From positions 248,001-312,000 of the forward strand of contig CP142726.1 of the NCBI GenBank assembly GCA_036630325.1: a stretch of DNA of 64,000 nucleotides. Direction: 5' to 3'. The first letter of the stretch is position 1. Each line of letters starts with the position of its first letter. Made by a program: the position numbers and the translations under genes. The notes below the pieces were generated by a model, which made no database searches, had not been told where the DNA came from, and was given only the letters and a program-made list of their open reading frames with translations. Shown here in pieces: positions 1 to 63,622 of this stretch. This DNA comes from Vairimorpha necatrix. Taxonomy: Eukaryota.

Positions 1-706
1 TATGTAACTACTTTTGATCGAAGAGAATATTATAATATGTGAAAGAACTTATTGACATCAAAGCTTTAAAAGATGAATTGACCATAAAATGTTATATTCC
101 ATAAATATCTTCTTAACACTTATGATCTATCATCAAATGAATTAATACAAAATTTTCAGATATATCAAACTGAAACAATATAATTTGTGGATGTGATCAA
201 TTGTATTTATTATAGGTGGTAAATATCTTAACCTTTGCTTATTTATATCATACTAGGTGCTTATTTTTAAGAATATAGAGATATAGCATGTTCACGGACA
301 TTATATAGTTTGACAATATAAAATTATAAAGTAAATATTAACTAACATGTAAGAAATAAGCACATAGGGAATAAATTTGTCAATGAAAAAATGTTTATAA
401 TTTTTATTAATCTTACTTTAAAACCTTTTTTAAACAAAAGTGTAAAAGTAAATTCGGAATATAGCACGAGTTGTCTTATAAAAGATCTATAGTATTTATA
501 TCTCATTAATTTTTCAAGTATATGCTATTTTATATACTTGACAATAGATTATTTTTAGTCGATTACCAAAACGAATATTTTTTATAAATTTATGTCGATT
601 TTTTAAGGACAATATCGAATATTTGTTATTGAAAAAACTATGATATTACAAGACTTTGATATTGCAATTATTTTATAACATACTCTCTTAATAAATCTTA
701 TTACTA

Positions 707-1231
707 TTAATAATAAATAAAAGAATCTAAATCTGGCATTTCTCTATTTAACTGTTTCTTAATAAATTTACATGCTTTTACAAGTGGTACAAATTTTTTA
801 TATGTATTACTAAGCCTCACCATTTCTTCATTAATAACCTTTTTATTACTTAAAATAAAAGACACAAATAGTATTTTATCATCACATATATACACTCCAT
901 CAAAAACTTCTTTAATTTTATCTTTTGTCTCTTGGCACACACCTTCTCTAACCATAAGTAAATATACATCAGTATTAATAATCCTCTTGATTAGGGGAAT
1001 GTGCTTTGTTTCTATGTTTATAAGAGAAGCCCATATGTCTCATGATTGGTGGGTTCCGCCTAAACACGATCCAGAAACCAATAGAAATTTAAATTTGCAT
1101 TTTGATATTGTAATACCCTCTTTAATAATTTTCATAAGAGCTTCATCGGAGAGATCTTTTGCCCAGTTCTTTTGAGATTTAATAGGAATTCTTTTAGTTG
1201 GAGATTTCTCTTTACTTTCTTTCATAGACAT
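707..1231 (-). pseudogene. Frameshifted hypothetical protein gene (~175 codons)
   Basis: CCC motif (GCCCTATAAAATG) precedes the ATG at 1231. The frame of ORF 707..955 stays open upstream to ~1060, so one frameshift joins it to ORF 1040..1231. Confidence 0.5.
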
Positions 1232-1340
1232 TTTATAGGGCTAAAACTATTTTTTAATTAATAAAAAAAATATTTTTTGTCTATTGACACATTTAATATT
1301 ATAAAAAATAAAGTATTTACGATTTTATAGAAATGAATGC

Positions 1341-4300
1341 TGTGGTCTGTTGGTTTCCCAACAGACCGAGAAGAATGTTTTAAACCATATTTTTTATTAT
1401 CCTTCATACCCTTCTGGGCATGAATTTCTTTTATGTTTGTCGGAGGGAAAATATACAATATTTTCCCTCCAAAAAACATTATTGGGAAGAGGAAGAGAAT
1501 ACTTATAGAATAGTATTCTCTGGTCTCCAGGGCAATCTTAGGACCACTGGAGAACTGTTCCTTGACACTCCCCCCTTCTTTATTGGCTCCCATGTTTCCA
1601 GCTCAAAGTCCATTTTTTTTAAGTCTTTCCCATTTACCTTAAACACGTCATTATTGGGATTTATTATCTCGTATGCACCTTTCCTCCCGACTTTCGTTAT
1701 AGTGTATGGGCCTTCAAATTTGCTGTCCAGTTTATTTCTAATGCTTATAGGTGGTTTTCTTCTTAATACCACATCACCTACTTGAAGTGCAAATTCTTTC
1801 CCCTCTACTATTTCCCTTTCTCTGGCCTCTCTTTCGGCTTGTAACATAGTATCACGGGTTTGCTTCAATCTTTCAAATATTAAAAAATTATCTTCTAAAC
1901 ATAAGAGTTCTCTTTCGGGATGCTCCCATAATAAGGGTTTCCGTCCGTATAATAATTCAAAAGGAGAAAATCCTGTCTTCTTCCTTGGAGAAATTCTGTA
2001 TGCGTACAGAGCCAGTTCCAAATATTCATCCCAGTCTTTCCACCTTCCATTTATCATTTTAGCCAGTTTTGCTACTAATGATTGGTTGGTTCTCTCTACC
2101 GTGCCATTGCATTGTGGGTGGTAAGCTGACGTAAAAGATTTCTTTATTTTAAATATTCCACATAATTCCTTGACCGTGTTGTTCAAAAATTCCAGTCCTC
2201 TATCTGATAGTAATTCGTTGGGCGGACCATGTCTACATACTATTTCTTCAAAAATAAATTTAGCTACCGTCTTAGCCGATTTATTTCTTACGGCTTTTGC
2301 TTCGCACCATCTTGTTAGATAATCCGTGGCGACTATTAAATATGTTTTCCCATTTTCCGACTTAGGTAGAGGACCTACCATATCAATTCCTATCAGTGAA
2401 AATGGGTCCTTGAGTCGAATTCTATGATGTTGCTTTGGTGTTCTTTTTAAATTAAATTTTAGACACACCTGACATTTTTCGAGTTCCTGTTTAATATCTG
2501 CGTACATACCTTTCCATTTTGTTTTATCGAGAACTAAAGCATATGTTGGATAAATACTGCCATGTCCACACTCTTCGTGACATTTTAAAATCATTTCTTT
2601 ACGACTCTCGGCCGATAATTCTAGTTCATCTTCATAATTTACTACATGAACAAATCTCGTTAGTCCGTCCGCTATAATGTTCTCTTTGCCTTTAATATAT
2701 TCGATGTCATATGAGTAGTTTTCGAGTGTGAGAATCCATCTCATTAATCTACCAGTGCTCTCTTTATAACTCAGCAGCCATTTGAGGGCTTGATGATCTG
2801 TTCGAATTGTAAAAGTATTTGTTAGGTAAATCCGGAACTGGGATATGCTCCATATTATTGCCAAGCATTCCTTTTCGGTTACGGTGTAATTAATTTCAGC
2901 AGTATTTAATTTCCTTGAGATAAAATATACGGGCATTTCAGTCTCCTCGTATCTTTGCATCAGTGTTGCTCCTATGTAAAGGTTGGATGCATCTGTGTAT
3001 AAGATAAATCTCTTATTGAAGTCCGGTAACTTGAGAACGGGAGAGCTCGTAATAATTTCTTTTATTTTCCCTACACTTTGTTTTGCTTCTTCAGAAAATT
3101 TAAATTTACCTTTCTTCAAGCAGTCATAGATAGGAGCCATTATATCTGTATAATTCCTTATAAATTTTCTAAAATAGTTTATGAACCCAATAAAGGCTCT
3201 AGTTTCTTTAAGAGTGGCTGGGATTTTTAAATTAAGACATTTCGTCTGTTGCTCAAGTGGTATACTTACTCCATTCTTATTTATCGTATATCCCAAAAAA
3301 TTTACCGTATTCTTTCCGATTTTACATTTTTTGTGATTAACTTTCAATTTCAATTTGTTTAAAATTTCAAAAACTGCTTCAATGTGCTTTACGTGCTCTT
3401 CAATCGATCTAGAGTATATCATAATGTCGTCTAGATATACTTGTACAAATTTATGTAGGTACGGAGACAGTATAGAATTCATTATCTTCTGGAATGTAAA
3501 GGGTGCATTCACGAGTCCAAATGGCATCCTAACCCATTGAAACGTTCCTGTCCTACTCCTAAAAGCTGTAAGATATCTATCTTTTTCCCGAATTCTTATT
3601 TGATGGTACCCAGATTCCAAGTCCAATACTGTAAATATAGATGCTCCTTGTAATTCTTCTATAGTTTCTTCTACAAGTGGAATAGGATAGATCATCTTCT
3701 TTGTGATTTTATTCAACCTTCTATAGTCTATGCAAAATCTAATATCACCATTAGGTTTCTTGACAAGAACCACCGGGGAAGTATAGTCTGATTCACTGTT
3801 CTCAATAAATCCTTTACTCAAAAACTCTTGAATCTTACTTTCAATAATCTCGTTTTGTTCTGGAGATCTTCTGTATTGAATATTTCTTACTTCCGAAAAG
3901 TCATTTGTTATTTCTATGGCGTGTTCAATATCTAAGCTTGATTTTAAATCATTATTGTAGAAAACAGCTGGATACTTTGAGATAAGTTTATTAAATTTTT
4001 CTTTGTCCTCCTGTGCCGTGTCTTCTTCTCCGACGTCTACAGTTTGAGTTTCGAGTACTTCGGGAGTTGTTGTGCAGACTGATTTCGTTATTAACGCATT
4101 TCTCATCTTATCAAGAATTTTGAGTAAGTTCAGATTTAGAACATCTGCGAGGCCAATAATAAGGTCTTCTGGTAAGTTTGCTACTACATGTGCTTCTACT
4201 ATTCTTGATTTCTTAGTTTTAGGCTCTTTGACACTAAATTCCACTATGCCTTCTGATTTCACTGTACCGCCCACTCCTACTATATTCAGCGTCTCTTTTC

Positions 4301-5349
4301 TTGGATTCAGACCCAATAATTGGGCTTTCTTTTTATTAATGCAATTAATTTCTGCTCCCGTGTCAATGAGCGCAGCAATCTTTTCTCTCCCTGAAAAAAA
4401 ATTAATCCTTGCTCGGACATCCGAAAAATTATCGTTTTTAGCCACTCTACCTATCTTTAAAATAAATGAAGAATTTGTCTGTACTGCTTTCTTGGGGACA
4501 GTTTTATATTCTTTCATTTCTTGACAGGTTACTTCATTCTGTGGCTTTTTATAAAAAGGTTTCCTTTTCTTTAGGTATTTATTTATTAAAAAATCCTTTT
4601 CTTCTACGAGTTCTAGTAACTCTATCCACTCTTTGGTTTCACTGATCGCCTCCTTTAATATCTCGGGGGAGTTTCTTCCAATCGCAATCTTAGATCTCTC
4701 AAAGTGCTCAATGCTTCCTTTAGCACACCTTTTTAGGTCATAAGCGTAACTCAAGATGTCGCTTTCCTTCGGACCCTCTACGTATAGGTGCATGAATAGA
4801 TCTGTTACGTCTTCCACTAGTTTTTTTTTAAGGTATTTTTTATTAAAGTGGGATTTGAATGTCTCGTAATCTACAATCTCCTCGCCCTCAAAAGCTTTAA
4901 ACCATTTCAACGCTTTGCCTTTTAGTTTTGACTTGGCAATATCTAGCGTCTTCGCTTGAGAGTACACATCTTCAATTTCTCGAAATTGAGACAGAAAGTC
5001 TTCGGCTTTGTTTAGATCTTCGCCGGTAAATTCTAACCATCTGTTCTGAAGACATAGTTTTTTCATTTGAGAAAGGATGTTGTCGAGATCATCGCTCTTA
5101 TCCTCATCATCGTTACCACCATTGTGGTCTGTTGGTTTCCCAACAGACCGAGAAGAATGTTTTAAACCATATTTTTTATTATCCTTCATACCCTTCTGGG
5201 CATGAATTTCTTTTATGTTTGTCGGAGGGAAAATATACAATATTTTCCCTCCAAAAAACATTATTGGGAAGAGGAAGAGAATACTTATAGAATAGTATTC
5301 TCTGGTCTCCAGGGCAATCTTAGGACCACTGGAGAACTGTTCCTTGACA
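1341..5349 (-). mobile_element. Intact Ty3/Gypsy LTR retrotransposon (4009 bp)
   Basis: Two 227-bp TG...CA LTRs (1341-1567, 5123-5349), identical by eye. 5-bp TSD AATGC (1336-1340, 5350-5354). PPT AAGAAGGGGGGAG next to the 3' LTR; PBS-like TGGTGGTAAC after the 5' LTR. Confidence 0.97.
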
Positions 5350-6134: not shown

Positions 6135-7115
6135 TCAAATACATCTGTACTTGTTTTTAAGGCGGTTGTTAGTAGCTTCTTTAATAACTTCTTCATTATT
6201 TTGAGCCTTCTCTTCTTTATCAACGCTTTGATTATAATTATTGCCTCCATTTGAACATTCTTTCTTCGCTGAAACTTCACAAGTTTCTTCCCGTAATTTC
6301 TGTCTTGATAAATCTCTTGATCTTAGAAATTTTTTTTTATTTTCGTTTTGGTCAAGTTTTTCAGTTGTAATTTGTTCATTATTTTTTGGATTTTTCCAAT
6401 CAAAAATTTCATCTTCTTCAAATTGTTTACTAAACAAGCGGCAACGTCTTTGCATTCGTCCTCTTTTATTATTTTTTGGAATAAGTTTATTAGAAACATT
6501 TATATCGTTTTCCTTATTGTAATATAAATCTTTTAAGATTTCTGTCGGATTATAGAATTTAAATTTTGCTATATTTTCATGATACGATGAGGAAATAAGT
6601 GGATACAAGTAATTCTCATTGTAATCATAGGAATCGCAAAATTCTAGTTTATAAAATTCTCTCTCTTTATGTAACACAATATCTTTACTTCTTGAATAAG
6701 TGTTTGCTGTTAGTAAATCCAAAGTTGTTACTCTATCAATACAGATTTTATTTTTATCATATGGAATCTTAGCCATTAGTAAACATTCACCACTTTTGAA
6801 TAAATCTGCTCTGGCTTTATCTTTTAGATTTAAAATTGAATGAAGATTCAAGAGATCATATAAAGTTCTTTTCTCTTCTGAAGTTAATGGCTTAAAAAAA
6901 TTTTGCATATAACTTTTACCTAGATCCGAACTTTTATCGTCGATATTTACAGAATCTTTTACGCAATCTTCAGCTGTTAAATCTGATATGAAATAAATCG
7001 CAGCCGGATCGGTTTGTTTTATATTTATGTAAATTTCGACATTATTTTCATGTGGAACTATAAATGCATCGTAAGTACTAAGTATTGCAGTAATATAAAA
7101 AATAAGAAATATCAT
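6135..7115 (-). CDS. Hypothetical secreted-type protein (326 aa), lineage-specific family
   Basis: Intact ORF, CCCC directly before the ATG, hydrophobic N-terminus MIFLIFYITAILST. Clear paralog at 22986-23594 (shared KICIDRVTT.DLLTANTYSRSK, DSYDYNENY). Confidence 0.85.
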   Translation of the reverse strand: MIFLIFYITAILSTYDAFIVPHENNVEIYINIKQTDPAAIYFISDLTAEDCVKDSVNIDDKSSDLGKSYMQNFFKPLTSEEKRTLYDLLNLHSILNLKDKARADLFKSGECLLMAKIPYDKNKICIDRVTTLDLLTANTYSRSKDIVLHKEREFYKLEFCDSYDYNENYLYPLISSSYHENIAKFKFYNPTEILKDLYYNKENDINVSNKLIPKNNKRGRMQRRCRLFSKQFEEDEIFDWKNPKNNEQITTEKLDQNENKKKFLRSRDLSRQKLREETCEVSAKKECSNGGNNYNQSVDKEEKAQNNEEVIKEATNNRLKNKYRCI

Positions 7116-9575: not shown

Positions 9576-9587
9576 TGTTTAATCATA

Positions 9588-12500
9588 TGTTATATATCCT
9601 TATTATTTTTACCCCTCATTATGGAAAATAAACACATGGGGGCGATACCAGAAAATGGGTCTACAAAGGAGGACCGTGGCCAAGAGGCTAGAATATTATT
9701 AAAAGAGGTTAAAAGGATTGTTTATGAGTTGTTTTTAGAGAAAATTGATGAGTGTGGATTTAAATTAGAAATTTTTAGGAGAGGTTCTATTTTATTGAGA
9801 AATTTTATTGTTGAGAGGATCTCGCAAGAGGGTAGTTGGAAGGAAATTGAGGAAAAATTAGAGTTGCTAGCTATTCAGGAGGAAAAGGAACAAGTGAGAA
9901 AAAAAGAATTTGAAGAGTTGTCCCTAGCGTTATGGGCTAAATTTGAGGAGAAGAATAAGTTGTCTCGTGAGGAAAATAAAAAGAATATGCGTTGCTACAA
10001 TTGTGGGAAGTTAGGCCATAGTGTTAGATTTTGTAGGGGAATGAGGCGAGATTCTGAAGACAGAAGAAATAAAAGTAGTTTTAATTATGTTGGTAAATGT
10101 AAAGTGCAATTAGACTTAGAGGGTAAATGTGATGACGATTTCAATTCGGACAAATGTGATTATTATAATGTTGATGGTGGGAAACGTAAGAAGAAAAATT
10201 TAGGGGATATACAAGATTATAGCAAAAGGGACAATAATAAGAGAGTTCTGTTGAGAAGGGATGTAAGAGGCATCGCGTATTTAGAGGAGATTATTTCACG
10301 GGTAGGAGGAAGAGAGGATGAAGATATTAGTTTTTGTAAGGTTGAAAAATGTATTATCAAGACTCAAGAAGGCAAGAAAGTTGTTAAAAAAGGGCAGGCT
10401 ATAGCTCAGGCTTTGTTGAAAAAGACGGAAGATTATATTAATAGTTTGGAAAGAAGAAAGATAATTAGAAGGTCGACATCTGACTGGAGAAATCCCATTA
10501 GAGCGATTGAGAAACCGAATGGTGATATAAGATTAGTAAGTAATTTAATTGCCCTTAATGACATTGTAGAGAAGGATCCTTATGAGTTAACTAGGATAAG
10601 AGATGTTATTAGAAGTACACAGGGATCTGAATTTTTTACCGTGATAGATCTAAAGGAGGGGTTTTATAGTATTGAGATTGAAGAGAAGGATAGGTTTAAG
10701 ACGGCTTTTGAGTTTAATAAAAAGGTATACGAGTGGAATTCGATGGTCATGGGGTTTAAAAACTCACCGCAGATATTACAAAGAATAATGAATGGGATTT
10801 TTGAAAAATTTATTGGTAAGGGAATCGAAATTTATATGGACGATATTGTGATTCATAGTAAGACAAGAGAGGGTCACGACAAATTGTTGAAAGAGGCTGT
10901 GGATATATTAGAGGAGAATAGTATGAAAATTAATTTGGCTAAGGTTCAATTATGTAAACGAGAGGTGATGTTGTTAGGAGTAACAGTTAATGGCAAGGAG
11001 ATACTGCCATCTGAAATAAAGCAAAATGAAGCGTTAGAATTTCCCAAACCGGAGTGTGTATCAGATGTTAGGAAGTTTCTTGGGCTGGCTGGATGGTTTA
11101 GAAATCATATTGATAATTATGCAAAACGTACATTGGCGTTGACGGATTCTCTTAAAGGACGAGGAAGTAATTGGAAATGGACAGAAGAAATGGAAAAAGA
11201 ATATATTAGTTTAAGGGAAGTGATTAGGGATTTAAAAGGTTTAGCAATTGTTAATTATAATAAGGAATTTTTGTTACGCACGGATGCGAGTAATGTTGGA
11301 ATGGGTGCTGTTTTAATGCAGGAAGATGATCAAGGTAATTGGGTACCAGTACAGTGGGCATCAAAAAAGTTTACGCCTACGGAAACGAGATATGGAATCA
11401 GTGAGAAGGAGATGTATGCAGTCTTTTGGGGAATTAAAAAGTTTGAATATGAACTACGCGGAAGAAGATTTAGGGTAGAAACTGATCATAAGGCATTGAT
11501 CGAGATTAGAAATAAACCAGCATTTAACAATAATAGAATTAACAGGTGGATTGAAAAGATTCAAGAGTTCGACTTTAGCATTGAATATAGAGAGCCTAGT
11601 ACCATGGTTGTAGCAGATGCACTGAGTAGGGTACATGAAAATGAGAAAACGCTAATGAATAAGGAGAGAAGTATTAAACAGGCACAGGGTAAATGGGACA
11701 AGCATGTTAAAGTTGTTGATGGGAAGGAAATTTGGGTATTTGACTCTGGTAGAGAAGCGGAGATTCCAAAGAAAGAATTGCGTGAAGGTTTAATTGTCAA
11801 TGCTCATGAAAATTTGGGACATAGAAGTTTAGGATCAGTGTACTATGCAATGAAGTTTGAATTTTATTGGCCGGGTATGAAGAAGGATATCGAGGATGTT
11901 TTAAAGAAGTGTGAAGTTTGCCAAATATATAATAGGAAAAAGAGTGGTGGTTGTGATTTTGTTAGTTCAAGATTTTATTTGGAAAAGGTTGCTTTGGATT
12001 TGATTGAGTTTAGAGTTTTAGGGAAATATGTGTTGGTCGTGATTGATTATTATACTAGGATCGTTTGGGGAAAAGTAATAGAGGACAAACGCGGAAGCTC
12101 GGTTGTAGGATTTTTAAAATAGTTGTGTGGATCAGGAATGAAACCGGTAGAAATAATTACTGACAACGGTAAAGAATTTAGTAATGAATATATGAGGAAT
12201 TGGTGTTCAGAGGAAAATGTATTACATAGGAAAGTAAGCGTAGAAAGTCATAGAAGTAATGGAAGAGTGGAAAGGGTAATAGGAACCATAAGAGAAGGAA
12301 TATTGAAAGATGATGCTGTGGATTTTGAAGCCAAGGTTAATAGATGTATATGGCGTTATAATAACAGCTATCATGAAGGGTTGAGATGTACACCGTTTGA
12401 GGCCTCAAGAGACGAAACGGGCCATGTTATGATCGAGAATGGACCTGAAGGATTTTATAGTAGGAGGTTTGTGGCTCGCAAAAGAGAGAAATTCTATAAA

Positions 12501-12772
12501 AGGTCAGAGAGTTAGGGTAGCGAAGAAAGAGAACTTATCGGGTTGTAGTAAGTATGAGAAAGGAAGGTTTTTAGGATATGGTGTTATCAAGGAAGTTTGC
12601 GGAGGTGACTCGTACTTAGTTAGTTTGGAAAATGGTAGGATCGTGAAAAAGCGGCATTATGATTTAAAAGGTCTGCTTGGGATTAATGAGTTCTAGTATT
12701 AGACTACCGTCTTGGAGGGGGGATGTTATATATCCTTATTATTTTTACCCCTCATTATGGAAAATAAACACA
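9588..12772 (+). mobile_element. Ty3/Gypsy LTR retrotransposon with 49-bp LTRs (3185 bp)
   Basis: Identical 49-bp TG...CA repeats at 9588-9636 and 12724-12772. 5-bp TSD TCATA. PBS-like TGGGGGCG directly after the 5' LTR; PPT GGAGGGGGGA directly before the 3' LTR. Confidence 0.95.
9621..12696 (+). pseudogene. Gag-RT-RH-IN polyprotein with one in-frame TAG (12120-12122) and one frameshift (~12500) in the integrase
   Basis: CCHC knuckle CYNCGKLGHSVRFC; RT IDLKEGF, MVMGFKNSP, YMDD; RNase H TDAS, EKEM, TDHKAL; integrase HHCC, ALD, TDNGKEF, VERV. ORFs 9621-12122, 12123-12515 and 12439-12696 are collinear. Confidence 0.93.
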
Positions 12773-12826
12773 TCATATAAGATTTATTGCTATGGGTGGA
12801 AATAATAAAAAAAAATAAGATCAACT

Positions 12827-21311: not shown

Positions 21312-22609
21312 GGCGCTACTTAAAAATTTGCACCCCCCTAAAAAATACGTTCACTGAAAAAAAATTATTTGGTATAAAATGAGATAAAATCAAATTTTAA
21401 AGGATTTATTTTCCGGGGGGTGCGAATTTTTAAGTAATGGTATTTTGAACGTGAAATTTTTTTATTTTATCTATCCCTTATAATGAACAGGATGATGGAT
21501 GAGATGCTTCAATTCAATCCATACAATCCTATTTTCACTGATAATGACAGGGCAATCGACTACGGATTGAAGAACAACTTGTTATATCCTTGTATTCCCT
21601 GTACTAATGATCAGTGCAAAGGAATTATGTTTATTCAAAACATATCTTTGTTTTCTCAAGGAAAGGGGTACAAATGTAGCAAAAAAAATTGTAAACGAAG
21701 ATGTTCATTAAATAAAGGTTCTAAATTTGAATCTTTAGATATTGAATTTAAAAAAATTCTTCGTTGCATTTATTATTGGTGTCTGTCATATACTAATTTT
21801 CAGGCCATCAACATGTGTGAAACTTCTGAACCAACATATATTTCTGTAAAAGAAATAATAATGGAAACAATTTCCAAGTGTTCTACTGTTGTTACAACGA
21901 TAGATGGAGTTGGTCAGAGGATACAAATAGACGAAACAGCTATTTGTAATGGAATTATAGTATCAAATCCGTCTAGTCGATTGGATTCTGAACCTGGAAT
22001 TCAGTGGATAATAGGAGGTGTATTGGAAGGAAATTGTAGAGAGTTTTTTGTGGAACTAATACCCAATAGAAAATGGGAAACGATTTTACAAATATTAAAA
22101 AAATATGTAAAAGTAGGCACGGATATAGTAACTGATGGTTATCCATCCTATCCACGTGCTATAAGTGAATTTGGTTCTCACCATAGTGTGGTAAATCACT
22201 CTATGGGATTTTGTAATGAAGAAGGACAAAATACAAATTATGTAGAAAATATGTGGTCGCATCTTAAGCATGATTATAGAAAGCGTGGTGGAATAAATAA
22301 AATAAGAATTAAATGTTGGTTAGATGAGTTTAAATGGAAAAAAGAAAATATAGAATATTCAAAACCATTAACAATCAAATTAGCCTTCGTAAAAATAATT
22401 GATATTTTTTCTATGTTAAAGTAATTAAATTTTTGAACTTATAATATGTTATAACTGTTTTTTTTGAATATTTTAACTTTTGTAAATTCATATTTTCATA
22501 AAAATATTGTTTTAAATATAATTTTAAGGGTTAAAAATATTTTTTTTTATATAAATTTAATTGGTCAATGTAATTTTTTTTAGGGGGGTGCGAATTTTTA
22601 AGTAGCGCC
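21312..22609 (+). mobile_element. Intact Merlin (IS1016/ISXO2-like) DNA transposon, 1298 bp
   Basis: ~34-bp TIRs GGCGCTACTTAAAAATT(T/C)GCACCCCCCTAAAAAA; perfect 8-bp TSD ACCTCATC. Confidence 0.95.
21483..22424 (+). CDS. Merlin/ISXO2-like DDE transposase (313 aa)
   Basis: N-terminal Cys cluster; QIDET, WIIGG, VTDGYPSY, VNHS.GF, TNYVENMW motifs; CCC before the ATG; lies inside the TIRs. Confidence 0.93.
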   Translation: MNRMMDEMLQFNPYNPIFTDNDRAIDYGLKNNLLYPCIPCTNDQCKGIMFIQNISLFSQGKGYKCSKKNCKRRCSLNKGSKFESLDIEFKKILRCIYYWCLSYTNFQAINMCETSEPTYISVKEIIMETISKCSTVVTTIDGVGQRIQIDETAICNGIIVSNPSSRLDSEPGIQWIIGGVLEGNCREFFVELIPNRKWETILQILKKYVKVGTDIVTDGYPSYPRAISEFGSHHSVVNHSMGFCNEEGQNTNYVENMWSHLKHDYRKRGGINKIRIKCWLDEFKWKKENIEYSKPLTIKLAFVKIIDIFSMLK

Positions 22610-22985: not shown

Positions 22986-23594
22986 TTAATTTCTTTCCAT
23001 ATTAAAATATGAATTAAGTAAAATTTCAGTTAAATTTTGAGAATTAAAAATTGCTAAATTTTTTTGATACGACGATGAAAGAAGTGGATACGAGTAATTC
23101 TCATTATAATCATAAGAATCGGCAAATTCTAGCTTATAAAAATCTTTCTTCTTTTGAACCTCAATTACTTTACTTCTTGAATAGGTGTTTGCTGTTAATA
23201 AATCCACTGTCGTCACTCTATCAATACAAATTTTATTTTTGATATATGGAATTTTAACCATTAGTAAAAGTTTACTTCTTTTAAATAAATCTACTTTGGC
23301 TTTATCTTTCATCTTAAACATTAAGTAAAAATTCAAGATATCATATAAGTCGTCTTTCTCTTCTAAAGTCAATGGCTTAAAAAAATAATTAATATGGGGC
23401 TTCTCTAGATCTGATCTTTTAATATTAATTGAATCTTTGACACATTCTTCAACTGTATAATCCGATATAAAATAAATTGCAGGTTGATCTTTTTGTTTTA
23501 TATTCATGTAAATTTCGATATTGTTCTCATATGAAACTATAAATATATTGTAGGTAGTAAGTATTGCAGTAATATAAAAAATAAAAAATTTCAT
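22986..23594 (-). CDS. C-terminally truncated paralog of 6135-7115 (possibly a pseudogene)
   Basis: CCCC-ATG at 23594 (MKFFIFYITAILTT). Collinear with the 326-aa protein until an early stop after ~202 aa. Confidence 0.75.
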   Translation of the reverse strand: MKFFIFYITAILTTYNIFIVSYENNIEIYMNIKQKDQPAIYFISDYTVEECVKDSINIKRSDLEKPHINYFFKPLTLEEKDDLYDILNFYLMFKMKDKAKVDLFKRSKLLLMVKIPYIKNKICIDRVTTVDLLTANTYSRSKVIEVQKKKDFYKLEFADSYDYNENYSYPLLSSSYQKNLAIFNSQNLTEILLNSYFNMERN

Positions 23595-24457
23595 GGGGTA
23601 TTTAAAAAAGTTTTCAAAAACTATCATTAAATAATGTCACTTTTTGAAATAAATGTCAAAATAGCTTGAAATCTTCAAAATGTAGATAGCTAAGAATGCA
23701 ATATTATTGTTAAGATTTATTCTGATTAATAAATTTTAAATTTATCAAAAACATAATAAGAAAAAACCATTAGCAATGTTTTTTAGACAATAAATTCTGA
23801 CAGTGTAGCTTTGAGTTTTATTGGCCATCTGAAAAAATTAAATTTTTGATTGGCGACAAGAAAAAATCAAAAACTTTTGACAGGTACTATGATTATAGAA
23901 AAAAAAAGTTGTATAATATTTGACGTAGACTAACATAATAATTTTTTTTAAAAATTTTAAGCCAATTTGTTATACCATAATTTCTTATCAATTTAGATTG
24001 TTAATGATAAAAATAGCGTCTAGTGTAATTGAGGTTGAAACTTCAAAAAACCATAAAAATGTTATGTTAAATATTTATTATTCCAAAAACATGATTCTTT
24101 CTCAGATAAACACCGTAGTATTCGCTAACTTGTGTTAGAGTTCTGTATCCACTAAAGTTATATCTTATACAAGAAAATCAAATATAGCATAGATACGAAA
24201 ATGAGGAGGAGGGATACCACAGACCTTCCCTCTTTTGAGGGTGTTCACTGTATTTTTTTTTGAACTCCAGAAACGAAGTGCAAGATAAAGGAGAAGCAAT
24301 CATTAGCACTCAAATTACTTGCATATTTAAACAGTAAAAATACCAAATTAATATATATTTGTATACAAAATTTAATTTAAAAAAGTAAGATAATCATAAA
24401 ACTATATTATGTTTAATAACTATATGTTGTATATTAAATTTTTTGATTGGACAATCT

Positions 24458-30864: not shown

Positions 30865-31639
30865 TTTTTTAATTCGCAACTAATATGTAGATCAATCCCT
30901 TACACGGGAACCAAATTATTGATATGTGGTCCTTGTCCAACTGTTTCTGCAAATTGTTACATACTAAAACACCGCCTTTTAACTTTACAGTACAACAAGC
31001 TTCGCCAAATCCATTATACTTTGACTCAAGAGAAGATTTTTTATTTGTACAACAAATCGCGTCTTTTGACCTTTTGCGAATATACTTACGTACATGGTTT
31101 TCTATAGACCAATGATATACCTTTTCGTACAAGCTAAAAGATTACAACAATCCTTGGCAATACACACACCTTTTACGTCGCCGCAATAATAGGCTGTCTT
31201 TTATTTTGAATGAGCTGAACCAACGTTGTATACCAGTTTCGGCAACTGAGGGCATAAGTATCCAGTATGAAAGTTCCACGAGAGCTTTTATTACTCTACT
31301 TGTATAATCAATTAGTTGGATCGAGGATACCGTTCTAATGTGCTATACCCTTATCTCATTCAGCCCGTACACATAAGATGCGCTTATGAACTTATATGTC
31401 GCCTCTCTTATGATTCTTTTCTCGGCCTTTAGGTGCGTTTCTGCACTAGATGCTAATCTCATTATGTATGACGCACACAAGTTTTAATGTATCAACTTAA
31501 CGTTAATGTTGACATTTTTATGGTATAAGTTGTTCTACCCTCATCATAGAAAGTAGAAACAATGGGGGTACTCCTAGAAATCGAACTCATCTATTGCTCG
31601 ATGAAAGCATCGCCTTCGACCACTGCGCTTTAATACAAC
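30865..31639 (-). mobile_element. tRNA-headed SINE-like family 1, diverged copy D
   Basis: Minus-strand head AGCGCAGTGGTCGAAGGCG...GAGTTCGATTTC; collinear with copies A/B along the full length (CATCATAGAAAGTAGAAACAAT, CACACAAGTTT, AATCGCGTC, CCCTTACA). Confidence 0.75.
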
Positions 31640-32257: not shown

Positions 32258-35200
32258 TGTTGTATTATTTAAAAATTTATAAATTCCCCCCTTAATTTTA
32301 TCATGAATATAGATCTTAAAAATAAAATGGTGGTGAATGTCAAATTTGTGCCCATGACAAGGGAAATAACGGTGGGAAATGCCACTCTAGAGCTAAAAAG
32401 ACTGGAAAATTTGTCTTTTTTTAAAAGCATGAGCGAAGATGAAAAGATAGAATTCATTATTAGCAGAGCATGCCATGAAATCATTGAATGGTTTTGCAGT
32501 TCAACGTCAAGGAAAACTGCTATGAACTGGATTCGTTTTAAAGAGGAGTTGGAGGGGTTTTGCAGCCCAAGCAAAAGAGAAAAACGACGTGTTTCGTTTA
32601 AATCAGGAATATAATCAAACAATTTGTGAATAAATTAAATTGGTGGAGGAATCAGCAAAGCCCCACAAACTAAAAAATGAAGAAAAGATAAAAATAATTT
32701 TTTGCTGGACTGAAAGAGGATGTTCCAGATGTGAAAAGATTAATAATTAGGAGTAAAGTGTTAGATGAGAATTTAATTATGATATTTATTTGTTAGAAGA
32801 TATTTAGGCAGAAAAAATAAAAAAGGAAGAGAAGAAAAAGAAGAAAAAAGGGAACTTAAATCTAAAAAAGAAAAAATCAATGAATTAGAAGATATATTGT
32901 CGCAGCTACAAAGTTTAAAGGTTCAGGAACCAAAAAAGTTCTCTTGTTACAACTGTGGAAGGTCAGGCCATACTTATAAATTCTGTAGGGCCCCGCGAGA
33001 CAATAACAGATCATACAAAAGAATCAATGAAGTAGTAGGAGACGCTGAGAAGAAGTCCAGGACTTAATTAATAAAAATAATTCAGTTTATATCAATGGAA
33101 TATTATTTGAGGCTACACTGGACACCGGGTCCCATTATAATTTCATATAAGATGCTGTTAGATGAGTATTGAAAGTTAAAACAAAGAGTAACAATCAAAA
33201 ATGACCTTTTATACTTGTTTAGATAACCCTTTTTGTATTAAAGAACATGTTTTTTGGAAATTGAATATAAAGGAAAAAGATTAAGTCAGAAATTCTATAT
33301 TTTATCTAAAGTCAGAGCAGAGAAGATTCTTGTTGGAAGGGAAACAATCAAAATGTTAATGGAATGTGAGAAAATAGTGAATCAGGCAGAAATTAAAACA
33401 ACCGAAGGTGTTAAAGTCGATAAGAGAGAGTTCATGATTTGCCCAAGAAAATTGAATCAGGAATTGATGAGGCAGTAACTGAGTTGCTACAGAAAGGCTA
33501 CATTTTAGAATCTAAGTCCACGTGGTTAAACAATATAAGACCTGTAATTAAACCGAATGGAAGCATCCGAGTCACAACCAACCTTGTAGCAGTAAACAAA
33601 TTAATAGAACAAGACTGATACTCCTTACCTAATATAAATACTATCTTAGTTAATTTAATAGATATGAAATATTTCAGTAAGATTGATTTAAAGGATGGTT
33701 TCTTTCAAATCCCGTTGGCCAAAGAAGACCGACATAAAACAGCTTTTCGAGTACGACATAGATTGTACGAGTGGAATGTAATGCCTATGGGCTTTAGAAA
33801 TGCCCCAGCAATTTTTCAAAGGCATATAAATATAGTTTCGGCTGAAGAAATAGGTAAATCGTGTTTTGTTAACGTAGATGACATATTGATTTTTAGTAAA
33901 AGCGGAGAAGAACATGAGGCCGTCTTTAGAAATATTGTTAACATTTTATACAAAAAACATTTGGAGATTAATACCGAAAAAACAATTTATAAGCAAGAAA
34001 AAGTAGAATTTTTAGGCCATATAATCTTTCATAATAAGGTATATCCAAAACACTCAGTTACACAAGGCATTGATGATACGGAGATGCCCCAAGATCGAAA
34101 ACAAATACAAGAATTTTTGGGGTTTATTAATTATTATAGAAAATATGTTAAAGGATGTGCAATTCTTAAAGCACCTTTGTATGATATATTACAGGAAAAG
34201 AAAAAATTTATATGGGATGAGGCAGCAATGAATGCATTTGAAGCATTAAAGGGAGAACTTAAAAAGAAAATAGAATTAAACCAGCCGGATTTTAATAAGC
34301 CTTTCCAATTAGAAACAGATGCTTCCAATCATAGTATAGGAGCGATTTTATCACAAACGAATGAAAAGGAAAGATACCCAATAGCATTTGCTTCTAGAAG
34401 ATTAAAAGAACACGAGAAAAGTATAGTATTTCAGAAAAAGAATTTCTAGCAATCCTATGGGGACTCGAACATTTTAAATATTTTGTGTATGGGACACCGG
34501 TAGATGTTATTACAGATCATAAAGCTTTAGAGGTTATTAATAAAGGAGACATAACATGTCCTAGAATTCAGCGATGGTTAGATAGATTGAGTATGTTTGA
34601 CTTTTAATATTAAATATAGAAAAGGAAATGAGATGGTTCATGTAGATTGTCTTAGTAGAAACACTACGAGTACTGAATTAGAGAAAGCGGAGAATAATGT
34701 CCTAATGAGAATAAATTACATAGAATGTGACGAAAGTGAACAAAGAAAATTTATAAGAAAAGTTCATGAAGAGTGTTTACACAGAGGTGAAAAGACAATA
34801 AAACAAAAACTGCTTTCACAAGGTACTTGCTTTAATAATATGGACAGAATAATAAAAGAGGAGATTTCAAAATGTGTAGTATGCAAACAATACAATCCAA
34901 AAAAATAAACAATTTGTATTTGTGACAGCTCAAGAAGTAGGAGAAAAAGAGGCCGTGGATATAATAGGACCAATAGAAAATTGTTACATAATTTCTGGGA
35001 TTGATTATTTTTCGAGAAAGGGATTTGCAAAGATAATCAATTCAAGACAAGATAGGAATGTCCTCAAATTTGTGATGGAACTCCATAAAGAATTAAAAAT
35101 TCAGATGTTAGTTTGCGATCAATCTAAGGAAAATTTGAGTAAGAAAATCAAAGATTTTGCAAGAGAAGAAAATTTTAAACTGCATTACACCACCTTGTTC

Positions 35201-36972: not shown

Positions 36973-37757
36973 TTTTTTTCTTGCAAATAAGAGGTAGGGA
37001 GAAACCTTACATAGGAACCAGAGGGATTTGGGTGTGATCCTCTTTCAACTGGTACTGTGAGATTCTAACTGACTAAAACTCCCCCCACACAACTTGCTGG
37101 TGCAGTAAGCTCCGCCGTATCCCTTGGACTTGCGCTCCAGGAGAACACTTTCCATTTATACCTCGAATCGCGTCAGAGTGACCTCACGGCGGATATACTT
37201 AACGGGCATGGTTATCTATAACCCGAGGAGAGACATCATCGTACTGACTCAAAGGTCCCTACAATCATCCGTATTGCACACACGGCTCCTTACACGACCA
37301 CACCCCAGCCCGACGTTTTTATTGGGCTGCTTTGACCACCAGTCTTCCACTAGTTTCGGCCACCGTGTTACAAAATCTTATAGGATAGGGTCCACGAGAC
37401 CTTCTATTGCCCTACTTCGTCTGGTCTCTTAGTTAGCATTAGGATCCCACTCTAGAGTGCACCAGCCATGGGCTCCAACTAGGCCGTACTCATCAGATAC
37501 TTTTATGTATCATTAAGTCACCAAGGGGTGATACTGCTTTTTGGCTTTGAGATGCGTTTCTACACTAGATGCTAATCCCTTGTGGCTGGACACACACAAG
37601 TTTCAATGAATCAACTTAATGATTATCGTGGACATTTTTATCATCTGAGTTGTTCCAACTGCATCATAGAAAGTAGAAACAATTTTGTGCCCCTGGGAAT
37701 CGAACCCAGCCATTGCTCAATGGAAGCATTGCATTCTACCACTGTGCTAAGGGCACC
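36973..37757 (-). mobile_element. tRNA-headed SINE-like family 1, copy A
   Basis: Head 37687-37757 with A-box TAGCACAGTGG, B-box GGTTCGATTCC and acceptor-like GTGCCC/GGGCAC pairing; A-run tail; full-length similarity to 56901-57687. Confidence 0.88.
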
Positions 37758-40700
37758 TATTTGGACAAGAAGAATGTGTTGTCGCAATGTGCCAGAACAC
37801 CAGAGGATGTTCTAGGTGCGTTTGTGATCAACGGATTACCAGAGAATATAGGAAATATGATCATGTTAAATTGTCCAGAAAGGTTGTCGTGGTCGTACAT
37901 ATATAAATTTGTAGTGGGCTGCAGTGGCAGAAGATTTCAGCTGAGGGTACTTCGCCCAATGTCTACGAAGTTGATGCAGTTTAGAATACAAAATTTGTGT
38001 CTAAATTAGGTAATAAAGGGACGCCAGAGACGGGCAAGGTAAGATGTTTTTATTGCGGTAAATTAGGTCATATAAAGAGACAAAGTTTTAAATTCCAGAG
38101 AAAATTGCATTTATTATGGAATCTGGCACGGAGAGGAATGAGGAAAAGGAAGCGGAAGATAGTTTCAATAAAAAAAATTTGTTTTTTTGACAGCCATGAA
38201 AGCTGATGTGTTTTCATAAGACTCGTTCCCGATAGTTCATATAAAAGGGGAGAAATAGTTATAAAGCGTTGTTAATTCGGGTTCTGCGGTAAATGTAATT
38301 TGTAGAGGATTAATTCCGGAAATTGTTATTTTATGGATACTAATGTGGTTTTAAAGTCGGCAGGAGAAGATTAAATGGGTGTTTTAGAAAATGTTAGGTT
38401 GTCCTTCTGGTGGAATGATACAGAGCTTACTGAAGAATTTATTGTTTTTACAAAAAAAATTTATGTTATAATTTTGGGATGACCGTTTTTGAGAAGAAAC
38501 AAACTGACATTATTATGGAAGGAGGGATTTTAGGTCTTCAGTATTGATAAGCGTATAAATATGTTAGGAGAACATACAATTGACACAGGAAATGCTGCTC
38601 GAGTTGTGACGCCGATATGTAGGAATGGTATGTCATTAGAGGATGAAATTTAAGAGTATTTGAACAAGGGCTTTTAAACCCTCTAAGAGTCTATGGCGGA
38701 GTCCGTTGGTAATAATTAAGAAGAAAGAAGAAGGTTGGAGAATTTGTATAGATTATAGGAGATTAAACGATGTTACATGTCAAACGCTTTATCCATGCCA
38801 AGGGTCGATGAAATAGATCAGTTGAACGGAGCTAAGATTTTCAAAAAGTTGGATGCTTTATCGGGGTATCATCAAATAGAATGAGTGAGAAAGATTTGGA
38901 GAAGACGGCCTTTGGATCCAGAGATGGTCTATTTAAGTTTTTAAGAGTGCCATTTGGATTTAAATTGGGCCGGCAACATTCCAGCGAGCAATGAATAATG
39001 TATTAAGAGAATTTATTGGTAAATGTGTGATTGTGTACATAAATGATATTTTAATTTACATTTAGAATATGAAGAGCATGTAGTGCATTTAAAGCAAGTG
39101 TTAAGAGATTAGATGAGTTCGGTTTGAATTTAATGCGTCAAAATGTGAATACAGAAAATAAGAGCTAAAGATTGTGGGAGTAACAGTGGGAAGAATGGTA
39201 TTAGAATTAATGATGATAGGATAAGCAAATTGTAGATATGCGTCTGCCCACGTCAAGGAAAGATTTAGAATCGTTTTTGGGATTGATTAATTAATGCGTC
39301 GGTTTTTGAGAAATGTATTTGAGCACAGAGTATTTATATGGTTTACTGAAGAAGGAAAATGAAGGGAAGTTTACGACGATCGAGTATGATGAGAAATACA
39401 AGAGATCAATAGAAGCATTTAAGTTAGAAGTTGGGGAAACAATATGGATGGCGTTAACCAGAAGGAGAGGGAATTCATTTTATACACGGACGCTTCTGAC
39501 GTAGGGAGAGAGGCGATTTTATCACAGATACAGGATGGAGAAGAGAAAATTGTATTAGGTTTTTTAGTAAGGTTCATTCAAAACTGGAGAGGAACTATTC
39601 TGCCCTAGAAAAGAATTGTTGGCTGTAATTAGGGCATTAACAGATTTAAGACCGTATTTAATTGGGATAAGTTTGAGCTACGAACGAATCATAAAGCATC
39701 GATTCGGTTGTTTTCGTCAAAAATATGAAGTGAAGATTAGCAAGATGGTCATTATTTCCACAAGAACATGATTTTGCAACAAAACAGATTAAATGTGAAA
39801 AAATTAGCGGATGTATTAAGTAGAACTGCTTGTGTTGATGCAGTATTAGAGAATAAGGAAGTGTCAGTAAAAGAGGTTCTTAAGAAACATGGGATGTTAG
39901 CACATGGTTCAGCAGAGGAAGTTTTTATGGCTTAAAGGTGATCGAAGAGAGATATCAGAAGTAAAGGTTAGAGTTTTAATTAAAAATTGTAGGGGTTTTC
40001 AACAGATGGTCGTTCTAAAGTTAAAAAAAACAAATAATAGTGTTCAATCATCAGGTCCTTTTAAATTCCGGGAGATTGATATGGTGGGTCCATTGATTTG
40101 ATTTAGAAGGAAACAAGTTTATTTTAACAATGAAAGATCATTGGACAAAGATGGCTGAGATGTAAGGGTGAAGTCAAAAGATATGGAAGTATTGTTGAAG
40201 CAGTTGAACGATCCATATTGAAAAAATATGGCATAGCGGAGAAGATTTTGTTGGATAACGGTAAGGAGTTCAAGAATAGAATGACGGAGGAACTGGCCAA
40301 TACGTATGGATTTAAATGGGTTTTTACATTCCTTATTCTCCGAGAAATACAAGTTTGGTAGAGAGATTTAATGGGATGTTTATTATGAAGTTGAGGAAAT
40401 TGTGTAGATTCGGTTCGTTAGATTGGGGAGAGCAGCTAGAAAAAACAAGACTAGAATATTTGAATTCATATCATAGGATTATAAAATGTACACCATTGGA
40501 AAAAAGCATGATGGAACAGAAAGATAACTTGCCGGTGCATTCGAAACGCGGAAAATTATAGCTAGAGAAAGAAGGTTTATTATTGGTGGTCTAAACTTAA
40601 GATGGAAGATTTTGTTATGTTTAGTGATAAATCAGTAAGTAGGGATAAATTAGATCCAAAATATACTCATAAAGGGGAAATTCTAGAGAAAATGTTAGAG

Positions 40701-42097: not shown

Positions 42098-42836
42098 AGT
42101 GCACTTAGCCAAGTGGTCGAAGGTGATGCTTCCATTTATAATTTAGGTTCAAATCCCAGGGGCTATAAAATTGGTTCTAACTTTTTATGATGCAGTGAAA
42201 ATAACTCAGATGAGTAAAAATGTCCACGTTGATCATGTAGTTGAATCGATGAAACTTGTGTGTGTTCAGTACGGGGGAGGGGGTAGCATCTAGCGTAGAA
42301 ACGAACACAATGCTGAAAAACAGTATCATCCTTGTGGTGACTTAATGATACATAAAAGTATCTAATAGGTACGGCGTAGTTAACCCCCAGTTGATGCACT
42401 CTGAGTGATCCTAGAGCTAACTAAGAGACTATACGAAGTAGGGCAATAGAAGGTCTCGTGGACCCTATCCTATAAGATTCTGTAACACGGTGGCCGATGC
42501 CAGTGGAAAACTAATGTTCAACACAACCCAATAAAAGATGCGGGCTAATGATATGGGCGCGTAAGGAGCCGAGTGTGCGATACAGATAATTGTATGAGCC
42601 ATTGGGTCAGTACGATAATATTCCTCCTCGGGTTAAAGATGACCAAGCCCGTGTGTATATCCGCTTTGGGGCACTCTGGATGCGAATTGAAGTATTAATG
42701 GAAATTTTTTTTGGAGCAAAGTCCATAAATACGGCGGGCTTGTTGCAACGGTATGTTTTATAAAGGGAGTTTTGCGAGTAAAAATCATAAAGTACAGTGG
42801 ATAAAGATCACACATGACCCCGCTTTTGATCCTTAT
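42098..42836 (+). mobile_element. tRNA-headed SINE-like family 1, copy C
   Basis: Head TAGCCAAGTGGTCGAAGG...GGTTCAAATCCCAGGGG; long blocks identical to the reverse complement of copies A/B (GGTGACTTAATGATACATAAAAGTATCT, GTAGGGCAATAGAAGGTCTC). Confidence 0.85.
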
Positions 42837-54172: not shown

Positions 54173-56158
54173 ATAATTTACACTAACCTGTAAAGTTTCT
54201 TATTTTTTTGACCCCGTTTCGTAGTTTTGAGATTCCCGAACTAATTGATTTGGGTTGTTTTGTAAAACATTGAAATGATTTATGCGGGATTCTACCACAT
54301 AATTGTCACATTTTTTTATTTTTTATTTATTTCGATATTTAGCAAACATGAATTTTTTTAGGAATGAAAAATATTCAAAGAAGGGCACGTTAAAATAAAT
54401 GAACAATAATAATTACTACTAAAATAAAAAAAAGCATGGGAATCACAAAGAAAATTTCTAACATCAAAAAATAAACCTACATTCTCTCCCTATTGGAGCA
54501 ATATTTTCGTTTTGGCTCCCTCCTAGAAGGTATCACAGAAGCGTAAACAAAGACAGGAAGAAGATATTAAAATAAAAGTTTCGAAGATTTTGGTATTTGT
54601 TATGATGGTAAAATTGAAAATAAGGGAAGGAAATTATTCAAATTAAGTCTACCAGTAGATTTAAAAAGATAAAACATAAGAAACAGTTTTTAGAGGGAAA
54701 AACAAAACAAGATAAAAGAAAAAAAAAATTAATTAATTAGAAGAATTGGAAGGAAAATTTACAGAAGTCTTAGTAAAAGACGAAAGGAAATAAAAGTTTT
54801 TACAAGGGGAAAATGTTCTATTGATACAAAACAAGGAGTAAATGTAGTTTTGGGGGACAAAAATATTTTCATGATCTAGTGTAAAGTTAGAAAAGTATAT
54901 TAATTTATTAGAAAGTAAAGGTATTATCAGAAGGACAAGAGTGAGTGGAGAAGCCTAATAGGGGCCATAGAACCCCCGAATAGAAAAGTGAGATCGGTAA
55001 GCAATAAATGGCTTTAAATAAACTGGTGAAATGGAAATGTACGAATTGCCACTAATTAGAGACATTATTAGAGCACCACAAGGTTCTAAAGTATATAGGA
55101 TTATAGACTTAAAGTAAGGATGCTTTTATATATAAATTGAAGAACATAACAAATATAAGGCAGAGTTTGAGATAAATGGTAGAGTATTCAATGGAATAGT
55201 ATGGAAATGGGATTTAGAAATATCCATATTATGCAAAGATTGATGGACGCAGTTTTAGATAAATTTAGAGGCATGGCTGTTGAGGTGTACATGGATGATA
55301 TTATTATTTAAGCAAGAGATAATGATATAAACGATAATATTTCACAACATGTAATTCGGAAATTCAAAGATCGTGAATTTAAAGTAAACATAAAGAAGAC
55401 ACAATACAAATTAGGAGAAGTGAAACTACTTGATATAACAATTTACTGAGAAGACATCAAACCAAACAAAAATCAAGCAAGAGACAAAAGAACACAAAAG
55501 GCCTAATAACATAAAAAAGCTTAGAATATTTTTAGGGTTATCGGGCTGGTTTAAAGATTTTATTCCTCATTGAAATTATCGGACAGCACGACTTACAGAA
55601 GCACTGAAAAAAAGATGGTAAAAAGGAAGGGCCCGAAGCTATGGAGAAAGCCTTTATGGACATTAAAGAGAATTCAAGGGGCATGAAAAACTATAAATTG
55701 TAGCCAGTTAGGTAATTTTTGGAGTGCAAACGGACGCATGCGATACGTTAATTGGAGCAAAACTAATGCAAGAAGACGAGAAACAAGGAAGGTGGATACC
55801 GATACAATATGCATCAAAAATGTTAATATCAACAGAAAAAAGATATATAATCAGTGAAAGAGATGATGGCAGTGTTATTTGGAATAAATAAATTCGAGGC
55901 GGATTTACGCGAAATTTCATTTAATGACAGATCATATTACTGACCGAGCTTAGAAACAACCCGTCTTTATAGTAATAACAGAATTAATAGATATATAGAA
56001 CATATACAAGTGTTCGACTTTACCATTGCATAAGTAAAAGGACAAATGATGATGGATGTAGATGCTCTTAGTTGAGAATTTGAAAATAACGAGTGAAAGA
56101 AAAAAGCGAAAGAAAACTACAGACGAAAAAAAACAGATGAAAGGAAAAGAAATAAAGC

Positions 56159-62758: not shown

Positions 62759-63622
62759 CCAAGAACACAACAAAATTATAAATTTCAAATGATAATTTAA
62801 TGCCAGGTAAAAAGCTGTTTTTTTGCCCTGCATTCTTGTCTCATACACCTATAAACTAATCTTTCCTTTCCCCTTTCCAATAATATTGTAAGCTTTGCAA
62901 CAACACGATCACAAGAACCACATCGTCTAATCAAATTAATAATTCCAGTCTTTATCATGTAGTAATTACATGAGGCAAGACTGGAAAACAAAGGATGTCT
63001 ATAATTATAAAAGTTTTTTTTTGTCATTTTTGGGTCTTTTTTAAAAAAAATAAAAATTATTAATTTTTGCTTTTCTCCGTTTTGCTGCCCCATTTTTTTG
63101 GGGGCAGCAAAACGGAGAAGCGCCGCAAATATATATTCAACTAGGTTGTGACCTGCAGATACTTTTTGTTTGATAATTTAATACATGAACAAGTCGTTTT
63201 TCGCTTTTGGGTGCGTCTTAATACGTTATGTTTATCCTCAAATGGTGAATCACACAAGTTTCATCTGATCAATTTTATGATTTTTGTGTACATGTTCAGC
63301 ATCTAATTCGTTTCGAATGCAATATGGAAAGTAGAAATATTATAATGTTGTCGGTATTCAGACCCAGTTATTGTCAATGGAAGCTCATAACAGACCACTG
63401 CGATAAGGAAATCTAGCATTATACATCGAAGAAGTTTCTAGTAAAAACAATCAAAAGGCGCTAATCAATTTATAGGTCAGTTAATTTCATAAAAGGATGC
63501 GAGGATGTAGTAAACTATAAAAATATAAAGTATATCAAAAATACATTAAAATGAAGAAAATTGATGGATAAAAAATCCAAATAAAATTTATATAAAATAA
63601 AAAAAAAACTTTAGAAAAAAAC

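Follow-up and report, generated by a model that had tools for sequence, protein, structure and literature searches.

A young Ty3/gypsy family with 49-bp long terminal repeats and no detected protease in the genome of Vairimorpha necatrix

How short can a coding, recently mobile retrotransposon's long terminal repeats (LTRs) become? The question is raised by an element of about 3.2 kb at positions 9588–12772 of a 64,000-nt stretch of the Vairimorpha necatrix genome (assembly GCA_036630325.1, contig CP142726.1, positions 248,001–312,000, forward strand; hereafter, the window). A preliminary description had read the element as an LTR retrotransposon whose complete LTRs are only 49 bp long. Its ends comprise the following features.

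9583–9587 (+): 5′ target-site duplication (TSD) TCATA, a perfect match to the 3′ duplication
9588–9636 (+): 5′ LTR, 49 bp, TG..CA, from repeat search and copy comparison
9612–9615 (+): CCCC after an AT tract (LTR positions 25–28), a microsporidian promoter-type motif of putative function
9621–9623 (+): Gag-Pol start codon within the LTR (LTR 34–36), in the same frame in 6/6 families
9627–9632 (+): AATAAA in the 5′ LTR (LTR 40–45), doubling as Gag codons
9636–9638 (+): second in-frame ATG, across the junction of LTR and primer-binding site (PBS)
9637–9649 (+): PBS, 13 nt, protein-coding, with no gap to the LTR, complementary to tRNA-Pro(AGG)
12714–12723 (+): polypurine tract (PPT), 10 nt, adjoining the 3′ LTR
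12724–12772 (+): 3′ LTR, 49 bp, identical to the 5′ LTR, with AATAAA at 12763–12768
12773–12777 (+): 3′ TSD TCATA

Direct comparison of the two ends gave the same 49 nt, with TG at the start and CA at the end. The 60 nt outside each repeat did not align, and the 51 nt reported by a repeat search include a single chance match on either side. TCATA matches perfectly on both sides (chance of a given 5-mer match ~0.002 at window composition), the PBS is complementary to a host tRNA over its 13 nt, and the 10-nt purine tract abuts the 3′ LTR. Because the similarity ends at the repeat edges and these are framed by the TSD and the abutting PPT and PBS, the 49-bp repeat is confirmed as the entire LTR. 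The preliminary description had also placed CCCC, the start codon and AATAAA where we find them. The hexamer leaves 4 nt to the LTR end, no further AATAAA or ATTAAA occurs in the 49 bp, and it overlaps both Gag codons and the end of the integrase (IN); likewise, the final 16 bp of the LTR, together with the PBS, serve as Gag codons. The LTR has no notable predicted fold (−1.7 kcal/mol, a value without shuffle control).

Such ends could be peculiar to one copy, left by a one-off deletion of a long-LTR element or by an assembly artefact. Scoring the best 40 of 277 candidates, we found at least 24 full-length copies at 99–100% identity, all of which (24/24) have 49-bp LTRs, with a perfect 5-bp TSD in 23/24 and an identical LTR pair in 21/24. 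Full-length members with long LTRs, which the preliminary description had named as the observation that would speak against it, were absent from these 24. Two further copies with internal deletions and a third interrupted by nested insertions also carry these 49-bp LTRs. Genome-wide, the 54 matches to the LTR (≤3 mismatches) form 27 pairs, compared with 0 matches for a reverse-pattern control, and an identical 16 nt precede the 3′ LTR in 26/26 two-LTR loci. A one-off origin or artefact found no support, apart from two coding breaks that the window copy does have; against the 24 copies, the 27 pairs, the TSDs, and the sister families, solo LTRs and independent contigs described below, we regard it as practically negligible.

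The copies behave as products of transposition. Their flanks are unrelated (mean identity 0.30–0.31, maximum 0.43), and the base before the TSD is A in 22/24 copies and 27/27 sister loci, while the base after it is T in 24/24 copies and 26/27 sister loci; the target bias is symmetric, A/N5/T. TG..CA ends, 5-bp TSDs, unrelated flanks and this bias show integrase-type insertion. LTR pairs are regenerated together: three copies have the same one, two or three private substitutions in both LTRs, implying that the pair was rebuilt from one template, with gene conversion as the alternative source of these shared changes. The mean pairwise distance of the copies is 0.68%, their tree is star-like, and the frame is open over at least 1020 codons in 14/24. 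The family, a Ty3/gypsy one, is young and was mobile recently. The element is also covered by contigs from four other runs; two of them have a length of 3165 nt with the LTRs as their ends, and one 3165-nt contig is ~97% identical to the element. Third codon positions hold 29 of the 40 differences listed for these contigs (40 of 133 rows), a pattern that shows purifying selection between isolates.

The short LTRs extend to related families. Among reverse transcriptase (RT) relatives at 60–70% identity (best 104 of 1165 candidates scored), an LTR was obtained at all but one of 33 examined loci, with sizes of 38, 48, 49 (one family with TG..TA) and 49–50 bp, plus a nested 71-bp element; the remaining locus has 49-bp LTRs. 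The TG..TA family has a perfect TSD at 9/10 loci. In 6/6 families the first codon of the open reading frame (ORF) lies in the LTR, another in-frame ATG straddles the junction with the PBS, and the order and spacing of AT tract, CCC and ATG are conserved (CCC at LTR 25–26 in five 48–49-bp families, at LTR 15 in the 38-bp family). AATAAA begins 10 nt from the LTR end in 4/6 families. The copy of the 49-bp-LTR family that is interrupted by nested insertions lies at C3:881000–890900; one of these insertions is a protease- and knuckle-bearing element with 71-bp LTRs.

Because an LTR ending in ACA joins a TGG PBS in frame, the junction leaves H, N, Y or D before the second Met. Of 26 homologues with a second Met within the first nine residues, 23 have one of these four before it (background 13–15%); 20 further Met-starting homologues have no second Met there. 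The signature indicates that the LTR/PBS junction is widespread; it is not a measure of LTR length. Two metagenome loci and three contigs from bacterial metagenome-assembled genomes (MAGs) contain relatives with no complete two-ended element, and the viral contigs searched yielded no relatives. The MAGs with short relative-bearing contigs are titled Clostridium sp. and Turicibacter sp.; eukaryotic contamination is most likely.

The preliminary description had also called for 49-bp solo LTRs with 5-bp TSDs. These exist in the sister families but not in the family itself (0/54 matches). A degenerate pattern gave 180 LTR-like matches of 47–50 bp in the genome, compared with 0 in the reversed control, and of 20 unpaired ones among the first 100 of the 180, two are solo LTRs with a perfect TSD, 14/20 adjoin a PBS or PPT, and 4/20 have neither. 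The 38-bp LTR has 82 genome matches (39 pairs and four unpaired, all four with PBS or PPT), none of which is a solo LTR. For the 227-bp type of LTR found in the window (see below), 7/15 examined unpaired matches are solo. We do not take this contrast as a sign that tiny LTRs resist recombination, since these searches differ in stringency and age and 2/20 solos exist.

The PBS was compared with 44 distinct tRNA sequences, taken from 50/63 Rfam tRNA matches in the genome. The best partner is the 3′ end of tRNA-Pro(AGG) over 13 nt, with a runner-up of only 8 nt. By the same test, tRNA-Arg(TCG) is the partner for the PBS of the 38-bp-LTR sister family, over 13 nt, and tRNA-Ala(AGC) for that of the 71-bp-LTR family, over 11 nt. 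Two tRNA-Met calls in the window were rejected as primers because they do not fit the PBS. These ARAGORN calls lie at one end of a dispersed repeat of ~790 bp (36973–37761 and 56902–57691, 93% identity between these two best copies; weaker copies at 42099–42813, 30865–31629 and 63251–63384), which looks like a tRNA-headed family of short interspersed nuclear elements rather than true tRNA genes.

A Pfam search of the window ORFs, with structure prediction for the N-terminal part, gave the following polyprotein.

9669–9986 (+): short helical Gag part, aa 17–122 (AlphaFold, predicted local distance difference test score 90+ over most)
9990–10034 (+): CCHC zinc knuckle, aa 124–138 (PF00098, E 0.0037, below cut-off)
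10071–10352 (+): variable linker at the usual place of the protease, predicted disordered, no D[ST]G motif
10506–10988 (+): RT core, YMDD at aa 405 (PF00078, E 1.6e-31)
11178–11570 (+): RNase H (PF17919, PF17917)
11769–12515 (+): integrase, H2C2 zinc domain and core, stop at 12120–12122 (PF17921, E 1e-13; rve, E 0.0026, in the downstream piece)
12433–12696 (+): C-terminal piece of the integrase, in another frame; the homologous region is in frame in relatives

The single ORF has the order Gag, knuckle, RT, RNase H, IN. Since the last three are encoded, we ruled out a non-autonomous miniature of the kind called terminal-repeat retrotransposon in miniature (TRIM). The knuckle, CX2CX4HX4C at aa 125, is matched by PF00098 in 23/35 members, and three of its Cys/His residues are invariant in the homologue alignment. 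Ahead of it lie ~120 Gag residues, in which the Pfam search found no gag family; AlphaFold predicts three helices and a further helix of 50 residues, then the knuckle and a disordered stretch; set beside the two-domain capsid of Ty3/gypsy Gag, the predicted Gag comprises a single small helical domain plus the long helix. At E ≤ 0.001 neither model had a Foldseek match, and the Foldseek matches of the knuckle to human immunodeficiency virus nucleocapsid (NC) are not significant. The fold search with Gag returned the Arc C-lobe (Z 5.8–6.3, root-mean-square deviation 2.5–2.6, 64 aligned), the C-terminal capsid domain (CA-CTD) of RSV (Z 5.5) and the CA-like part of MOAP1 (Z 5.5), all tied with unrelated helical proteins. 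Atlas leads for Gag, under 0.9, point to Retrotrans_gag/CCHC clusters.

No aspartic protease was found in the polyprotein as a Pfam match, motif or folded domain, and the protease family is absent from the 52 closest database proteins, whose named sources are Nosema, Vairimorpha and Enteropsectra; with the CCC promoter motif, these names point most probably to a microsporidian, Nosema/Vairimorpha-like host. A protease motif before RT occurs in 0/52 of these close homologues (six begin at or within RT and are uninformative) compared with 30/68 distant ones. The PF13975 model gave at least 150 protease matches in the genome, none inside the 24 copies. By the descent of its RT the element belongs to Ty3/gypsy, and it behaves as one of that group, but it is non-canonical in gene content, since the aspartic protease between Gag and RT is missing. 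The preliminary description mentioned neither the missing protease and reduced Gag nor the breaks in the frame of the window copy.

The genome also holds gypsy families that bear a protease. An in-window control, a complete gypsy element at 1341–5349 (−), lies 4.2 kb upstream and has identical 227-bp LTRs, a 5-bp TSD and a 1286-codon ORF with protease and Ty3_capsid. In 21 protease-bearing elements the LTRs measure 168–341 bp in 19 and 70 bp in one, with one unresolved. These families resemble the 49-bp-LTR element in their single ORF starting within the LTR, 5-bp TSD and abutting PPT, but differ in having ORFs of 1050–1340 codons, a protease and a length of ~4 kb. Their presence allows another reading, in which the element is a semi-autonomous parasite that supplies RT and IN and takes Gag and protease from co-resident long-LTR families. 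A Ty3/Tf1-type element that has one ORF and neither protease nor frameshift cannot make the surplus of Gag that a capsid needs; this argues for such a dependence, as do the protease matches of other families, one of them within the window. Set against this, the stretch from knuckle to RT is variable in both sequence and length, without any conserved site, the PBS, tRNA and LTR ends are unlike those of the long-LTR families, and the short Gag has been kept, being alignable across homologues down to ~20–30% identity. We hold this parasitic reading to be a serious minority possibility.

The order of changes was approached with a quick RT-RNase H tree of 62 rows, rooted at the midpoint. All 27 protease-less rows fall on one side of a branch (Shimodaira–Hasegawa-like approximate likelihood ratio test, 95), and the protease-bearing 71-bp-LTR family is their sister (support 97). 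The tag ‘_noPR’ on five long-LTR rows means that the strict motif was missed; those elements had been chosen by a PF13975 match. This topology would fit LTR shrinkage before a single protease loss, as far as a midpoint root alone can order the two. The best explanation is quite probably that the element belongs to a young Ty3/gypsy family of a lineage in which the LTR was cut to 38–50 bp and the protease lost.

How could so short an LTR work? In Encephalitozoon cuniculi genes, 5′ untranslated regions mapped by rapid amplification of cDNA ends are <7 nt and a CCC motif is present (PMC2803860). If the element follows these rules, a tiny LTR may be possible because the host promoter itself would be only ~30 bp (AT tract and CCC before the ATG). 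With an RNA start 1–7 nt before the ATG, ~30 bp would suffice for the unique 3′ region (U3, ~26–32 nt), and tRNA-Pro would prime a minus strong-stop DNA of only ~17–23 nt. The distance from signal to cut is stated as usually ~20 nt (PMC2803860); with 4 nt after AATAAA, cleavage would be more likely in flanking DNA. It is about an even prospect, in our estimate, that the RNA extends past the entire 3′ LTR and is cleaved in flanking DNA. The entire strong-stop DNA would then be homologous to the RNA 3′ end, and the stretch from the start to the LTR end would be terminally redundant and act as the repeat region (R), leaving no separate unique 5′ region (U5). The abutting PPT and PBS would set both ends of the 49-bp product.

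Alternatively, along the lines of the preliminary description, the LTR may be a miniature of the usual U3-R-U5 plan, with start and poly(A) site both within the 49 bp, an R of ~10–15 nt and a U5 of a few nt. The AATAAA beginning 10 nt from the end in 4/6 families is what such a plan would predict, and in the other 2/6 a hexamer at LTR 20–24 would cut at or near the LTR end. The 4 nt that follow the hexamer fall far below the ~20 nt usual in PMC2803860, there is no other such signal in the LTR, and the hexamer is also constrained as codons and as the end of the integrase; we consider this plan possible but rather unlikely. A further reading dispenses with a promoter, the copies being made from host read-through transcripts that contain both LTRs, with length set by PPT and PBS. 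Transcription overrun is common in E. cuniculi (PMC2803860), yet the conserved order and spacing of AT tract, CCC and ATG in 6/6 families match a host promoter, and we judge this origin improbable.

For the protein, the preferred reading of a lineage with shrunken LTRs and a lost protease has two versions: the polyprotein would act without being cut, or it would borrow the protease of one of the many gypsy families in this genome that encode one. Action of the uncut chain seems to us about evenly poised, borrowing of protease or capsid has a smaller but appreciable share, and a host protease takes the rest. A bolder version, which we put forward tentatively, is a self-sufficient element without virus-like particle: an uncut Gag-RT-RNase H-IN chain in a small ribonucleoprotein, a strong-stop no longer than the RT footprint (~10–23 nt across families), no U5, and an RNA end in flanking host DNA.

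Several observations weigh against parts of this explanation. LTRs of 70 and 71 bp occur with a protease, so that short LTRs are not tied to protease loss, and the start codon lies inside the LTR in long-LTR microsporidian elements as well (including those in PMC4202319 Table S1), so that this feature is not special to the 49-bp family. AATAAA is missing at LTR 40 in 2/6 families, which have the hexamer at LTR 20–24 instead; read-through of the 3′ LTR need therefore not be general. The U3 and R sizes rest on the E. cuniculi rules (PMC2803860), and the complete LTRs of the lineage come from one genome and one published consensus. As for activity, the window copy has the stop at 12120–12122, within the core of the integrase, and changes frame near 12.5 kb, the frame is broken in 10/24 copies (some possibly by assembly errors), and private substitutions in the 24 copies number 42/57/57 by codon position, an even spread that gives no sign of selection among copies.

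Elsewhere in the window we identified Merlin/IS1595-type and FLYWCH Mutator-like-element (MULE) transposase genes and two decayed gypsy remnants (21483–22424, 58230–59473, 61058–62255, 33466–34604 and 54884–56087). Two paralogous ORFs at 6135–7115 and 22986–23627 (−) have hydrophobic N-termini, share 79% DNA identity over 629 nt, and have no Pfam match.

The Mag element of B. mori has LTRs of about 77 bp, and Nbr elements of N. bombycis were reportedly described by Xu et al. in 2006. A layout with LTRs of ~50 bp is already in print and unremarked in the text: Table S1 of PMC4202319 gives the Anncaliia algerae ‘retro L’ consensus an LTR of 50 bp, an ORF at 32–3049 and a total of 3127 bp, and lists LTRs <100 bp in 4/51 rows giving a length, retro L included. 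The main text uses ‘LTRs’ once, not about size, and ‘protease’ never. For microsporidian elements, our literature search found nothing on LTRs this short or on loss of the protease, and Repbase, subscription journals and bioRxiv supplements may hold more. The main text of PMC7313128 contains neither ‘LTR’ nor ‘protease’, the accessible part of PMC13174016 gives no LTR size, and those of PMC3286476 and PMC7251063 hold nothing relevant to a minimum LTR.

The family shows the extent to which LTR elements can shrink. For coding, recently mobile elements it gives an empirical lower bound on a functional LTR, 49 bp and, in a sister family, 38 bp; the shortest LTR that we found published, of 52 bp, belongs to a non-coding TRIM (PMC4717578) and is longer than both. 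Two textbook assumptions become testable: the amount of terminal redundancy that strand transfer requires, and the dependence of an LTR element on a protease and capsid of its own. The preliminary description rightly put the default minimum of common finders near 100 bp (100 bp in LTRharvest, PMC2253517); finders with this minimum skip whole families, here at least 180 matches to the 47–50-bp pattern and 82 to the 38-bp LTR in a 15-Mb genome.

Compared with known systems, the short LTR is a family-wide trait of a Ty3/gypsy variant and not of the canonical kind. The closest layout is retro L, assigned to microsporidian Ty3/gypsy group 1 or 2 (PMC4202319), whose first 600 letters, compared by eye only, have TG..CA, CCC before an in-LTR ATG, an abutting TGG PBS and a zinc knuckle; the parts of that paper available to us give it no TSD, PBS, copy or mechanism analysis. 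A single polyprotein is stated for microsporidian Ty3/gypsy elements (Parisot et al. 2014, PMC4202319), a trait of those groups that our element shares, while the published consensuses stand outside our tree. Yeast Ty3 (PMC5371799) is alike in RT-RNase H-IN order, CCHC knuckle, tRNA PBS, PPT, TG..CA and 5-bp TSD, but its NC and IN are made by proteolytic cleavage, whereas our element has no protease. Ty3/gypsy clades average LTRs of 174–695 bp in the training sets for hidden Markov models (PMC3601003), against 49 bp here, with a Gag of only ~120 residues before the knuckle and 3.2 kb in all. TRIMs, the smallest of which is CcaRetroS9 with 52-bp LTRs, share LTRs of ~50 bp, evidently the products of copying by reverse transcription (PMC4717578). 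They are non-coding and non-autonomous, whereas RT, RNase H and IN are encoded by the 49-bp-LTR element, whose 38-bp sister has LTRs shorter than 52 bp.

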